A stretch of 64,000 bases of DNA from Shigella phage ESh17 (ON528727); one strand, 5' to 3'. Shown: positions 45,584 through 55,041, counted from the first letter of the stretch. Made by a program: numbers and translations. The notes: generated by a model from the letters alone, not told the origin.

Positions 45584-45841
45584 ATGAAAACTTTCAAAGA
45601 GTTTGCTACAAAAACTACTATCACCGAATCTTCCCACGGTATGGAAGTAAAGCTTGGAATGGCTTTAGCTGAAGCTGAGCGTCTTTTCTCTCGTATTAAA
45701 GAACTTGCTGCTGCAGTCGATCCTTCATCTTTTAAAGGAGACCAAACTAAAGTTAAAGCGCTTTTAGCATTATGCTCTGATGCAGGCGAAATCGCTAAGA
45801 ACGGTTCTAAGATGAAGAAACGATTAGAAGATTTAAAATAA
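45584..45841 (+). CDS. Internal (capsid-injected) protein, IPI-like, with capsid targeting sequence
   Basis: 85 aa; N-terminus MKTFKEFATKTTITE matches T4 CTS MKT(Y/F)xEF with I-x-E cleavage motif; own early promoter. Confidence 0.6.
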   Translation: MKTFKEFATKTTITESSHGMEVKLGMALAEAERLFSRIKELAAAVDPSSFKGDQTKVKALLALCSDAGEIAKNGSKMKKRLEDLK

Positions 45842-45860
45842 TTTCACAAAGTTGTTTACA
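45831..45860 (+). repeat. Repeated stop+promoter cassette, copy 2
   Basis: See copy 1. Confidence 0.7.
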
Positions 45861-45883
45861 TAGGGTTTTAGTTGTGATACTAT
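45854..45883 (+). promoter_or_regulatory. T4-type early promoter
   Basis: GTTTAC 45854-45859, TGaTACTAT -10 45878-45883; same module as 45524. Confidence 0.6.
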
Positions 45884-45911
45884 TACCCTATCAACTACTG
45901 AGGAGAATAAA

Positions 45912-46097
45912 ATGAAACGTTGTGAATTAATTCGAAATGTTGCTATTGCAATTTCTGCTTCCGCTTTTAGTTTTTCAATGTTTGTTGGATTTATATGCGG
46001 ATTATTAACTACAGCAGAAAATGTGTTTTCGCTTGTAGTAGCATTTTTAATTGGTTTAATCGCTATCGTTATGGATAAAATTTCTAAAGGTGAATAA
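45912..46097 (+). CDS. Small hydrophobic membrane protein
   Basis: 61 aa ORF, two predicted TM stretches; early promoter upstream. Confidence 0.55.
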   Translation: MKRCELIRNVAIAISASAFSFSMFVGFICGLLTTAENVFSLVVAFLIGLIAIVMDKISKGE

Positions 46098-46508
46098 ATG
46101 AGTATTAACGAATATTATGTTTATGCCGGGGATTATGCAAATCCTTCTCATTTTGAAGGTAATTTAATACCTGATAAAGTTTTTAATACTCCTTTTGAAG
46201 CGTGGAGTTGGATTGAAAGTAAAAATGGATTTTCTTACCGTTATGTTGAAGTAACTGATTGGAGAGGAACTAAATATCCTAAAGACCATTATTACGTAAA
46301 TCCATCTAAGGTAAATTTTCTTTTATTCGCAGGTGATAATTATTATCCTTGCGGTGGATATGATGATTTAATTGCGTATGCTGAAACAGAAGATAAGCTG
46401 CGTGATATCATTAAAGAAAATGAAAATAAACTAGATTATGGTTCCAATCGTTTCGACTGGTGGCAAATCGTAAATGCCCATACTCATGCTATCGTTGATA
46501 GAGGCTGA
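46098..46508 (+). CDS. Hypothetical protein (ORFan)
   Basis: 136 aa ORF, overlapping stop/start with previous gene. Confidence 0.6.
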   Translation: MSINEYYVYAGDYANPSHFEGNLIPDKVFNTPFEAWSWIESKNGFSYRYVEVTDWRGTKYPKDHYYVNPSKVNFLLFAGDNYYPCGGYDDLIAYAETEDKLRDIIKENENKLDYGSNRFDWWQIVNAHTHAIVDRG

Positions 46509-46533
46509 CAATGATTCTTTATGCTAAAGTACT
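46507..46533 (+). repeat. Duplicated gene-start module AATGATTCTTTATGCnAAAGTA, copy 1 (truncated 15-codon ORF)
   Basis: Matches 46963-46989 with 1-2 mismatches; copy 1 reading frame stops after MILYAKVLPYRNDIA. Confidence 0.6.
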
Positions 46534-46582
46534 ACCTTATAGGAATGATATTGCTTAAATTAATATTGAGGTAGCTGAGACT

Positions 46583-46963
46583 ATGAAATTAATTAAATCG
46601 GGTGGAACCAGATGGGTACTACTAACACGTAAGTATGCTATTAAGTTCCCTATCCCCAAGACATGGAAACACTTCGTGCAGGGTATGCTCAGCAATCTTA
46701 CAGAAGGTCAGTGGAAGGGGTATGATAACAAGCACCTATGCCCGATAGCATACTCAAACAGATTTGGTCTCATGGTTGTGATGCACAAAGCAGAGCCAGT
46801 TGAGGATAAGGAGCTTTTTAAATCTGATTTGCAAAAGCTCTATAATGATGTTGATGGTGATGAATGTAGAACGCTTGACCGTGATTTCTTTGAGTATGAT
46901 GCCTTTCCAAAGAACTTTGGCTACTACAAAGGTAGATTGGTCAAGATAGACTACGGAGTGTGA
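46583..46963 (+). CDS. Hypothetical protein (ORFan)
   Basis: 126 aa ORF with RBS GAGGTAG. Confidence 0.6.
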   Translation: MKLIKSGGTRWVLLTRKYAIKFPIPKTWKHFVQGMLSNLTEGQWKGYDNKHLCPIAYSNRFGLMVVMHKAEPVEDKELFKSDLQKLYNDVDGDECRTLDRDFFEYDAFPKNFGYYKGRLVKIDYGV

Positions 46964-46989
46964 TAATGATTCTTTATGCAAAAGTATCA
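46963..46989 (+). repeat. Duplicated gene-start module, copy 2 (start of 97-aa ORF)
   Basis: See copy 1. Confidence 0.6.
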
Positions 46990-52675: not shown

Positions 52676-53019
52676 ATAAAGTCAAATATTCTCTTCCTGA
52701 GTCATTTTTAATTTTTGCTGTAGCGTTGGCTGCAGCTCTTGCGGGTAGTCTTTTTGGATTGTTAATTGACTGTCTTATTTTAAACATTGACGGCACAGTA
52801 AATATAATAGAAGTTTGGAGTGAACTTCACTATACTAAAATTATTTCATTATTTTCATTCTTTGGTACAATGTTATATTTTCATTATGATAATTTTAAAA
52901 TAAATTGGCAAAGAAAAAAGGATTACAAAATACAATTAAAGGAATATAATAGCTACATGTCTTATATTGAAAAAGAATCAATGGAAGAGTTTGTGAGTGA
53001 TTGTAGGAAAATTAAATGA
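52657..53019 (+). CDS. Small membrane protein, paralogue 2 of 3
   Basis: 120 aa; TM stretches; C-terminus EEFVSDCRKIK. Confidence 0.6.
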   Translation: MQKPKLNKVKYSLPESFLIFAVALAAALAGSLFGLLIDCLILNIDGTVNIIEVWSELHYTKIISLFSFFGTMLYFHYDNFKINWQRKKDYKIQLKEYNSYMSYIEKESMEEFVSDCRKIK

Positions 53020-53504
53020 TTTTAAAAACTCGCTGGTATGATTTAGATGATGGGGATGATGGCATTTCAGTTGATAGAGTTGACTGGAATGGTTGTTCCG
53101 AAGATATGAAAAATTTGTTGATTAGGGAGTTTAGAATGGGATATCAAGCAGCTAAGCCATCTATTATAACAGATGATAAATTCGTGTGTATTCATAATGG
53201 TCGTGCTAAGTTAACGAACGCTGATTGGTTCACAGATAAAATTATGATTCTGTGGTATATTATTAGTCTTCCTGTGACATCATTCGTATTTTACTTTTTT
53301 ATAAAAAATCCAATGGACAGAATAGGAGATTGGATTCTTTTAACCATACTTGTTAATATTTTTACAGCAGCAATATTATCTGGGATATGGTGCGTGTTCA
53401 TTGAAATGCCATGGCGGCTACGCAGACAGCAAAAGATTTTTGATGAAAAGAAATACACTCAAAATTTAAATAACTTTATCACTGAATGCAGGAAATTAAA
53501 ATGA
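53016..53504 (+). CDS. Small membrane protein, paralogue 3 of 3
   Basis: 162 aa; TM stretches; C-terminus [11 protein letters not shown]. Confidence 0.6.
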   Translation: MILKTRWYDLDDGDDGISVDRVDWNGCSEDMKNLLIREFRMGYQAAKPSIITDDKFVCIHNGRAKLTNADWFTDKIMILWYIISLPVTSFVFYFFIKNPMDRIGDWILLTILVNIFTAAILSGIWCVFIEMPWRLRRQQKIFDEKKYTQNLNNFITECRKLK

Positions 53505-53941
53505 AAACATTATCAGCTGGTATTATCTTTATGACAGAAGATAAAGATTTATTTATGGGTCGGGTTACTGGTTCTCGTAAGCCTGGAATGATGGCACATC
53601 GCTGGGATATTCCAAAGGGGCGTGTAGAAAGTTCTGATTTAAGCGCATTAGATGCAGCACGAAGAGAATGCTTAGAAGAGACCGGTTTTAGCAATTATAA
53701 TCCAGACCTTCTAGAAGACCTAGGTGTATTTAAATATTCTAGTAATAAAGACCTACAGTTGTTTTATTATACGATTCCAGTAGAGCATGAGATGTTTAGA
53801 AATTGCCATTGCGAGTCTTATTTTGAAAATAAAGATGGCGTTATGATTCCAGAGATGGATGCTTTTGCTCTTATTCCTCGTACTCAGTGGCAATATGTGA
53901 TGGGTCCTTCACTTTACCGAATAATGAACAACCTCTTTTAA
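53486..53941 (+). CDS. nudE: Nudix hydrolase NudE (e.1)
   Basis: 151 aa (alternative start 53501); Nudix-like box [24 protein letters not shown]. Confidence 0.8.
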
Positions 53942-53978
53942 TTTTATAAATACCTTCTATAAACACTTAGGAGGTATT

Positions 53979-54473
53979 ATGAATATATTTGAAATGTTAC
54001 GTATAGATGAAGGTCTTAGACTTAAAATCTATAAAGACACAGAAGGCTATTACACTATTGGCATTGGTCATTTGCTTACTAAAAGTCCATCATTAAGTGT
54101 TGCTAAATCTGAATTAGATAAAGCTATTGGGCGTAATTGCAATGGTGTAATTACAAAAAATGAGGCTGAAAAACTCTTTAATCAGGATGTTGATGCTGCT
54201 GTTCGTGGAATTTTGAGAAATGCTAAATTAAAACCAGTTTATGATTCTCTTGATGCTGTTCGTCGTTGTGCATTAATTAATATGGTTTTCCAGATGGGAG
54301 AAACCGGTGTGGCAGGATTTACTAATTCTTTACGTATGCTCCAGCAAAAACGTTGGGATGAAGCAGCAGTTAACTTAGCTAAAAGTAGATGGTATAATCA
54401 AACACCTAATCGCGCAAAACGAGTCATTGCTACGTTTAGAACTGGCACTTGGGACGCGTATAAAAATCTATAA
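53979..54473 (+). CDS. e: Endolysin, T4 lysozyme (gene e)
   Basis: 164 aa; [33 protein letters not shown]... near-identical to T4 lysozyme with a few substitutions. Confidence 0.97.
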
Positions 54474-54477
54474 AGTT

Positions 54478-54507
54478 GTTTACTTTCTCCTAGAATTGTG
54501 ATAGTAT
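54478..54507 (+). promoter_or_regulatory. T4-type early promoter upstream of IPIII-like gene
   Basis: GTTTAC 54478-54483, TGaTAGTAT -10 54502-54507. Confidence 0.6.
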
Positions 54508-54567
54508 ATTCACAGTTACTTGAAGAGATAAATTATTAATTAAAATATTTACATTTAAAGGATACAC

Positions 54568-55041
54568 ATGAAAACATATCAAGAATTTATTACTGAAGCA
54601 GCTATTAATTCTCAAATTATTGCTGAATCTTTTACTGATCTTTTGAAATTTAAAAAAGGTCAAAAAATCACTGCTGTATTGGATGATGGTACAGAAGTTG
54701 AGATGGATGTACAGGGATATAATTATGCAGTAGATGGAAAACTGTATAATAAATCTCATGCTAAATTTGATTCATTTGACGACTTTGTTAATACAGTTGA
54801 AGATGAAAAAACTCGTAGATCCATTGCAACTGGCGACGCTAAGGTTCTTATGGCACATGGCCATGAACGCATCCGCGCTAAACAGAATAAAATGGGCGAA
54901 GATAATTTTGCATTAGTTGGTTATCAATCTGGTAAACAAACTTATGGCTATCAACGTACTGCTACCATGTATAACAAAAATGGTAAAATTGCCTTTGTGA
55001 ATAGTAAAGGTTCTATTCAGTACGTTAAATCGTTCAAATAA
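54568..55041 (+). CDS. Internal (capsid-injected) protein, IPIII/IPII-like
   Basis: 157 aa; N-terminus MKTYQEFITEAAINSQIIAE (CTS with I-T-E and I-A-E motifs); early promoter upstream; adjacent to e as ipIII in T4. Confidence 0.65.
   Translation: MKTYQEFITEAAINSQIIAESFTDLLKFKKGQKITAVLDDGTEVEMDVQGYNYAVDGKLYNKSHAKFDSFDDFVNTVEDEKTRRSIATGDAKVLMAHGHERIRAKQNKMGEDNFALVGYQSGKQTYGYQRTATMYNKNGKIAFVNSKGSIQYVKSFK

Follow-up and report, generated by a model that had tools for sequence, protein, structure and literature searches.

Three leader-bearing genes in Shigella phage ESh17: two known T-even internal head proteins and a candidate family at a third locus

What do three small, dispersed genes with closely matching first codons contribute to a T4-like phage? 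The question is raised by a stretch of 64,000 nucleotides from Shigella phage ESh17 (ON528727), referred to here as the window, in which the open reading frames (ORFs) starting at 45584, 49632 and 54568 had been proposed, in an original prediction made from the DNA alone, to encode injected internal proteins with the capsid-targeting N-terminus of T4 and the cleavage signature of the prohead protease gp21. In T4, the internal proteins (Ips or IPs) Ip1, Ip2 and Ip3 inhibit three different GmrSD type IV restriction enzymes, one each (PMC12373910; PMC9391042). The window derives from a Tequatrovirus whose closest record is Shigella phage SHBML-50-1 (99.5% identity). We conclude that all three ORFs probably encode T4-type internal proteins, and that the product of ORF 49632 is probably packaged and processed; head targeting and gp21 processing, the core of the original prediction, are well supported by the named Ips, their loci, the presence of gp21 and the leader determinants, and the interpretation as a whole is supported in part. 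The three ORFs were recovered on the + strand with the N-termini that had been read for them, and each has an (L/I)-x-E motif within residues 8-20 (aa, amino acids; pI, isoelectric point; arrows mark possible or predicted gp21 cuts):

45584 to 45841, + strand: IpV (ip5), 85-aa internal head protein precursor; leader MKTFKEFATKTTITE↓S, predicted gp21 cut after Glu15 (ITE↓S)
49632 to 50105, + strand: candidate internal protein, 157-aa precursor; leader MKSYTQFLNE↓AVLNE↓A; predicted mature form about 142-147 aa, pI 9.5-9.6
54568 to 55041, + strand: IpIV (Ip4), 157-aa internal virion protein precursor; leader MKTYQEFITE↓AAINSQIIAE↓S, with a first possible site ITE↓A and a second, IAE↓S, at residue 20

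The first alternative to be considered is that the N-termini agree by chance and that the three are unrelated, ordinary early genes. It can draw on the low discriminating power of (L/I)-x-E by itself, as this motif lies near the N-terminus in 23% of the window ORFs of at least 80 aa, which also counts against reading too much into the cleavage signature. The joint motif is far more restrictive: a six-frame scan (ATG start, at least 40 aa) yielded 570 ORFs, and MK[ST][YF]xxF is found in three of them, exactly those at 45584, 49632 and 54568, against a compositional expectation of 0.018 (Poisson P about 1e-6). Two of the three are, moreover, identical to named internal proteins, so that chance is already refuted and is vanishingly improbable as an account of the set.

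The specificity of the leader was gauged on a rebuilt whole T4 genome, in which 1580 ORFs were scanned with the same patterns. Besides ipI, ipII and ipIII, MK[ST][YF]xxF retrieves gene 61.1, which is hypothetical, and a single spurious ORF on the antisense strand. According to a review of Black's work, the first ten residues of IPIII suffice for packaging (PMC9026906), and in the summary of Mullaney & Black given there, leader residues 4 and 7 serve targeting and residues 8 and 10 processing, with Asp at position 10 blocking cleavage (PMC9026906). Expressed as [YF]xxF[LI]xE at the N-terminus, these determinants occur in T4 only in ipII, ipIII, 61.1 and UvsW.1, and in the window only in Ip4, ORF 49632 and UvsW.1. 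The targeting pair, an aromatic residue at 4 and Phe at 7, is present in all three proteins (F4/F7 in IpV, Y4/F7 in the 49632 protein and Y4/F7 in Ip4), and the L/I-x-E sites are ITE15 in IpV, LNE10 and LNE15 in the 49632 protein, and ITE10 and IAE20 in Ip4. T4 IPI, IPII and IPIII have the same type of leader, MKT(Y/F)(Q/K)EF followed by an L/I-x-E cut site, over 10-19 residues; that of IpV (MKTFKEF...ITE) mirrors the leader of IPI, and those of Ip4 and the 49632 protein mirror the 10-residue leader of IPII and IPIII. The mature proteins are small and basic in both phages, with a pI of 9.2 for IpV, 9.1-9.3 for Ip4 and 9.5-9.6 for the 49632 protein vs 9.0-9.65 for T4 IPI*, IPII* and IPIII*. The mature parts show no detectable similarity to those of the T4 proteins save one weak match between T4 ipII and Ip4 (33% over 75 residues, E 2e-4, by tblastn against the window).

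Three other proteins with leader-like beginnings were seen along the way. T4 gene 61.1 (NC_000866 18966-19130), encoding a hypothetical protein of 54 aa, starts MKTFKEFIKE↓DMVAG, a near-perfect capsid-targeting leader far from both loci at which ip genes are known; no mention of gp61.1 was found in the literature searched, and its N-terminus suggests that even T4 may hold more leader-bearing proteins than Ip1-3. The UvsW.1 homologue (window 6270-6500, minus strand; T4 114210-114440; 76 aa) begins MLLEFKQFLYE↓ASIDEF, with the aromatic-x-Q-F-L-x-E-A spacing of the 49632 leader (Y-T-Q-F-L-N-E-A) shifted by one residue. Lastly vs.6 (56068-56430), as in T4 a homologue of the autonomous glycyl-radical cofactor GrcA/YfiD, has a superficially leader-like N-terminus, MKAYQILE, which lacks Phe7 and is matched by none of the patterns.

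For two of the three genes, the identity of the product settles the question. The Ip genes of T-even phages occupy two hypervariable loci that hold at least 10 unrelated ip ORFs with only the leader in common (Repoila et al. 1994, as cited in PMC12373910 and PMC3012670), and ORFs 45584 and 54568 lie in just these polymorphic loci (57B-trna.4 and e-denV/vs.8, respectively). ORF 45584 sits between 57B and trna.4, as T4 ipI does; its 85-residue product matches the annotated IpV of Yersinia phage PST at every position (100% identity), and it falls into phrog_3499 'internal head protein' (E 1e-49). The product of ORF 54568 is 100% identical over 157 residues to PST IpIV, belongs to PF24183/DUF7412 (319 bits vs a 27-bit cut-off, E 6e-96) and to phrog_3155 'internal virion protein', and has a homologue in phage AR1 that is named Ip4. 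The PST genome was annotated by the Krisch laboratory, which defined the Ip series. ORFs 45584 and 54568 are simply the IpV and IpIV proteins of the T-even phages (the Repoila et al. 1994 series; PST, AR1, RB32); that these are internal proteins is accepted annotation, and nothing new is claimed for either gene.

ORF 54568 had been likened to T4 ipIII for its place beside gene e. The position holds, since T4 ipIII likewise follows e, whereas homology to ipIII was rejected: the protein is identical to IpIV (PF24183/DUF7412), and tblastn with T4 ipI, ipIII and denV found nothing in the 64-kb window; ipII, likewise absent, gave no more than its weak match to Ip4. The interval between e and vs.8 (54473-55147) contains Ip4 only; the relatives fD1 and R5505 keep denV there.

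Each of the three genes had also been credited with an early promoter of its own, which proved correct for two. The promoters before ORFs 45584 and 54568, GTTTAC(N17)TGATA(C/G)TAT, are almost identical to those before T4 ipI and ipIII, and that of IpV is part of a direct repeat (69 nt, 81% identical, spacing 330) that spans the last four codons (DLK and stop) of the preceding gene plus the early promoter:

45496 to 45564, + strand: upstream copy of the IpV-flanking repeat; last codons of 57B (DLK and stop) and T4-type early promoter GTTTACA...TGATACTAT at 45518-45553
45826 to 45894, + strand: downstream copy of the IpV-flanking repeat; last codons of IpV (DLK and stop) and early promoter of trna.4
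54472 to 54507, + strand: T4-type early promoter upstream of Ip4 (GTTTAC...TGATAGTAT); repeat family D2, nearly identical to the promoter before T4 ipIII

No early-type promoter was found upstream of ORF 49632, which has a late-promoter box instead (see below).

The enzyme expected to act on such leaders is encoded in the window together with its scaffold:

15937 to 16572, minus strand: gene 21, prohead protease, located by tblastn with T4 gp21 (99.5% identity); expected to remove the leaders

Gene 21 is surrounded by genes 20, 67, 68, 22, 23 and 24. The prohead protease and scaffolding core (gp21, gp22, gp67 and gp68) are 99-100% identical to their T4 counterparts, gp67 over the first 50 of 80 residues, and tblastn identities are 99.3% for gp22, 98.7% for gp23 and 99.1% for gp24. 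The contexts of the known gp21 cleavage sites in gp23 (FLTE↓A, residue 65) and gp24 (LRE↓S, residue 10) are both present in the window. Since the protease is nearly identical to that of T4 and these site contexts are retained, leader recognition and cleavage specificity should be as established for T4. Cleavage after Glu in L/I-x-E is shared by T4 Alt, gp23, gp24, gp67 and gp68, and the gp23 site closely resembles that of the 49632 family, FL(N/T/A)E↓(A/G/Q); these proteins differ from the Ips in being essential shell or core components or, in one case, a large enzyme, and in having no MKxYxEF leader.

Hence the question narrows to ORF 49632, for which the original prediction had seen no T4 positional counterpart. 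Its protein is identical to SHBML-50-1 gp135 ('hypothetical protein'), belongs to phrog_2280 'unknown function' and forms a family with RB32ORF133c, AR1_137 and fD1 g140 at 95-100% identity. By tblastn it is found in 511 phage records, in Tequatrovirus and, more distantly, in Jiaodavirus, Karamvirus and Yersinia, Serratia and Cronobacter phages. The named database entries examined are all 'hypothetical' but one, that of Klebsiella phage KPKp, which reads 'Internal head protein'. Judged from these labels and from later papers that cite two Ip loci, the family is arguably unrecognised as an internal protein; Petrov 2010 does not discuss Ips, and the fPS-65 paper contains no proteomics. The protein has all four defined leader determinants (Tyr4, Phe7, Leu8 and Glu10) with Ala next, as in T4, and a second LNE↓A at residue 15. 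When the family is aligned, including relatives of no more than 26-39% identity, M1, F7 and L8 never change, Y or F stands at position 4 throughout, and every member but one (M-T-E in P0004) has L-x-E with Ala, Gly or Gln next. Leader length varies by indels, the C-terminal half is swapped between two types, and the protein is rich in Lys and Ala, with a conserved KPAPKAxPK linker joining two helical halves. In the Klebsiella phage KpV477, a Jiaodavirus (locus 2995-3530), a stop interrupts the homologue after 78 codons, and its C-terminal part is resumed in frame further downstream; the pieces are annotated as separate small ORFs, and this copy is either a pseudogene or the product of a sequencing error.

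The locus itself is a compact cassette, bounded by the twin terminators that had been noted around the gene and that are borne out by their 10-bp stems, GAAA loop and U-run:

49558 to 49581, + strand: terminator hairpin 1 (AGCCCCAGCCGAAAGGTTGGGGCT + T5), left cassette boundary; -20.6 kcal/mol, z -3.5
49588 to 49595, + strand: T4-type late promoter box TATAAATA, 44 nt upstream of the ATG of ORF 49632
49622 to 49626, + strand: Shine-Dalgarno AGGAA of ORF 49632
50113 to 50136, + strand: terminator hairpin 2 (AGCCCTAGCCGAAAGGTTGGGGCT + T5), right cassette boundary; -18.3 kcal/mol

The two hairpins belong to a direct repeat of 36 nt, the left copy being 94% identical to 50110-50145 at a spacing of 555. 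Relative to T4, the window carries a clean extra segment of 555 bp, which starts inside the terminator hairpin that follows rnaC and ends inside the second hairpin copy; it contains, in order, the U-run of hairpin 1, TATAAATA, the Shine-Dalgarno sequence, the 157-codon ORF and hairpin 2. The single T4 terminator aligns in two parts, one with hairpin 1 (left half) and one with hairpin 2 (right half). T4 and PST have one hairpin and no gene at this site, confirming that ORF 49632 is without a T4 positional counterpart. The late-promoter octamer occurs at 22 sites in the window against 9.5 expected.

A recent insertion was considered and rejected, because the same position and the same layout of a terminator followed by TATAAATA recur in other genera. 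The homologue lies again just downstream of the tRNA cluster in JK45, KpV477, Serratia 4S and Entb_43; a terminator hairpin leads directly into TATAAATA also in Jiaodavirus KpV477 and Karamvirus Entb_43, and JK45 matches the box at 7 of 8 positions (AATAAATA). In Serratia 4S, no late-promoter box was found within 130 nt. The arrangement must therefore be an old one, and loss is the best reading of its absence from T4; on comparison of these sites, loss from T4 and PST by recombination between the twin terminator copies, which would explain the empty site, appears the more parsimonious history. The loci of IpV and ORF 49632 recall the promoter-early stem-loop (PeSL) cassettes that shuffle genes in T4-like phages (Arbiol 2010; Comeau 2014; PMC4122927), as both variable genes are bracketed by direct repeats of regulatory sequence: 69 nt with an early promoter around IpV, and 36 nt with a terminator around ORF 49632, where the boundary of presence and absence in T4 falls within the repeat. 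The 49632 locus differs in that its repeat is a terminator that is followed by a late promoter, rather than an early promoter and stem-loop.

Is the protein found in virions? The g140 protein of phage fD1 is identical to the 49632 protein at 156 of 157 residues, and liquid chromatography-tandem mass spectrometry (LC-MS/MS) of ultracentrifuge-purified fD1 virions scored it as particle-associated at the strict threshold (PMC8309999 Table S3). Two further fD1 proteins, g129 ('Head protein', 157 aa, encoded at the Ip4 position) and g146 (encoded at the ipI locus), were likewise scored as virion-associated (PMC8309999 Table S3). We take this detection as weak support for packaging of the 49632 protein. 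The N-terminal peptides predicted for the 49632 protein and g140 distinguish the possible forms:

uncut, tryptic: SYTQFLNEAVLNEASSTEIQAVAK
cut after Glu10: AVLNEASSTEIQAVAK
cut after Glu15: ASSTEIQAVAK

Several observations count against the 49632 protein as a packaged, injected Ip. The gene lies between rnaC and e.8, outside both canonical Ip loci, although position is a habit of these genes and not a functional requirement. Its promoter is of the late type, those of the canonical ip genes examined being early, and it is conserved and syntenic across genera, unlike the hypervariable classical Ips. Its N-terminus, unlike that of Ip4, gave no cross-match to other Ip PHROG families. The leader-like N-termini of T4 gp61.1 and UvsW.1, neither of which is known to be packaged, indicate that the motif alone can mislead. 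The fD1 preparation was impure, with 113-137 phage and 672 host proteins, and DenV, lysozyme e and NudE, which are clearly non-structural enzymes, were scored as well (PMC8309999). Finally, the searches linked the mature domain to nothing of known function and revealed no likeness in sequence or fold to a characterised inhibitor, so that an anti-defence role is proposed by analogy only.

Four of these points (the site outside the canonical loci, the missing PHROG cross-match, the leader-like N-termini of gp61.1 and UvsW.1, and the impure fD1 preparation) would suit an explanation in which IpV and Ip4 are genuine internal proteins and the 49632 product is a late cytoplasmic protein that is not packaged, its likeness to the leader stemming from shared ancestry, recombination with ip genes or a preference for an amphipathic helix. 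Against this, the four functionally defined leader positions persist in relatives of as little as 26% identity, in which the remainder of the protein has diverged and the C-terminal half has been exchanged; a late promoter is in keeping with head assembly, the mature protein shares the basic character of the known IPs, and the detection in fD1 virions was made at the strict threshold and together with both known Ips. We therefore regard a purely cytoplasmic protein as unlikely, and packaging by way of the leader remains the preferred reading.

The proposed course of events starts with transcription of ORF 49632 from its own late promoter, in step with head assembly. The N-terminal leader (aromatic residue at 4, Phe at 7) would give the precursors affinity for the scaffolding core (gp22 and partners), so that they would be built into the prohead, where gp21 would cut after the Glu of L/I-x-E, that is, after Glu15 in IpV, Glu10 and perhaps Glu20 in Ip4, and Glu10 and/or Glu15 in the 49632 protein. 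The mature proteins would stay inside the filled head and enter the next host along with the ejected DNA; there, by analogy with T4 Ip1-3, an injected protein would most likely disarm a first-line host defence.

Whether the 49632 protein acts as such an effector is where the reading is most tentative. Searches against Pfam and NCBIfam returned no family, and those against PHROGs only the uninformative phrog_2280. A profile search of 1.8 billion protein representatives gave 13 clusters only, nearly all of them small phage proteins of the same family, and a word-indexed protein search gave 13 proteins with no Pfam domain save one short fragment (PF26894). PDB sequence searches were negative for all three proteins. 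The AF2 model of the 49632 protein is of moderate quality (predicted local distance difference test score, pLDDT, 73) and all-helical, with the leader as a separate helix (residues 4-12) and residues 12-17, at the predicted cut, below a pLDDT of 50; a Foldseek search of the model against PDB and BFVD returned nothing but the protein itself. With a moderate model and no structural neighbour, no function is read from the fold.

An alternative that accepts packaging by way of the leader would place the protein inside the head as a structural or DNA-associated component, neutralising charge or serving as an accessory of the core, much like the bulk role proposed for IPIII, rather than as an injected effector. 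The late promoter, as a strictly late transcription signal, and conservation rather than hypervariability would also fit such a role, with synteny kept in Tequatrovirus, Jiaodavirus, Karamvirus and Serratia, Cronobacter and Yersinia phages; the Lys/Ala-rich composition and the linker between the helical halves are in keeping with it, and a morphogenetic role of IPIII is noted in a review (PMC9026906). However, T4 and PST assemble normal heads without the gene and the KpV477 copy is frameshifted, so the protein must be dispensable, and the modular C-terminal half, which exists in two types, is what would be expected of a target-specific effector. All three T4 Ips, including the basic and abundant IPIII, have in addition proved to be specific GmrSD inhibitors (PMC12373910). 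A structural role is hence rather doubtful, if somewhat less so than a protein that is never packaged. A specific anti-defence role, which rests on the T4 analogy, is for its part a possibility to be held tentatively.

With the same caution, the 49632 family may be proposed as a so far unrecognised class of internal protein, encoded at a third locus that is transcribed late and is kept in several genera of the Tevenvirinae; the protein would be loaded by its leader, trimmed by gp21 and injected, and, with a conserved N-terminal and a swappable C-terminal domain, could inhibit a host defence such as a GmrSD-type or other first-response nuclease. Compared with the T4 IPs, which have early promoters, it would occupy a site that is empty in T4 and be expressed late; it is not among the annotated Ips of PST, which has no such gene. 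The protease, the scaffold (99% identity) and the positions of ORF 45584 after 57B and ORF 54568 after e match T4 otherwise. The phenomenon is textbook T4 biology with two of its genes already named, and what is arguably new is the prediction for the 49632 family.

The literature of 2025 still counts two Ip loci, and T-even internal proteins are of renewed interest since the GmrSD findings, as many Ips beyond Ip1-3 have no known targets (PMC12373910). If the prediction is true, the 49632 family, with members in about 500 sequenced phages, would add to the known set of injected proteins that are candidates for anti-defence roles and, together with T4 gp61.1, extend the repertoire past the 'two Ip loci'. 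It is of moderate interest to specialists in phage defence and of low surprise overall. For annotation, it illustrates how internal proteins overlooked by homology-based pipelines can be picked up with a simple leader pattern.

The surroundings of the three genes follow the T4 order, read along early transcription. As set by the annotation of SHBML-50-1, AR1 and T4, the + strand carries gene 3, gene 1 (dNMP kinase), 57A, 57B, ORF 45584, trna.4 to trna.2, eleven tRNA genes, rnaD, rnaC, ORF 49632, e.8 to e.3, nudE, e (lysozyme), ORF 54568, vs.8, vs.7 and vs.6. Just before the 49632 cassette lie two small RNAs, for neither of which Rfam has a family:

49245 to 49507, + strand: rnaD and rnaC homologues (T4 small stable RNAs), near-identical in alignment to T4, from which the coordinates were transferred and are thus inferred; just upstream of the 49632 cassette

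The tRNA cluster (47858-48879) comprises eleven genes (Gln, Leu, Gly, Pro, Ser, Thr, Met, Tyr, Asn, His and Arg) and no homing endonuclease, compared with eight tRNAs plus segB in T4 and with AR1, which has segD inside the cluster. The tRNA-Tyr gene clears the Rfam threshold by a narrow margin, and the RefSeq record of SHBML-50-1 marks it as a pseudo-tRNA.

Further along, the ORF at 53016-53504 (162 aa) matches T4 e.2 (102 aa) at 87% over its first 97 residues; beyond the matching part it has a hydrophobic C-terminal extension with no equivalent in T4 e.2. A 10-kb query around the three genes matched 1186 phage records, of which SHBML-50-1 was the best, with 8% of the query uncovered. Within this 8% falls a region marked by a direct repeat of 31 nt (46501-46531 and 46956-46986; 87% identical, spacing 455) that duplicates the start of trna.2 (MILYAKV) and encloses an ORF at 46583-46963 (126 aa, with no match in Pfam), an arrangement that resembles another repeat-bounded cassette insertion.

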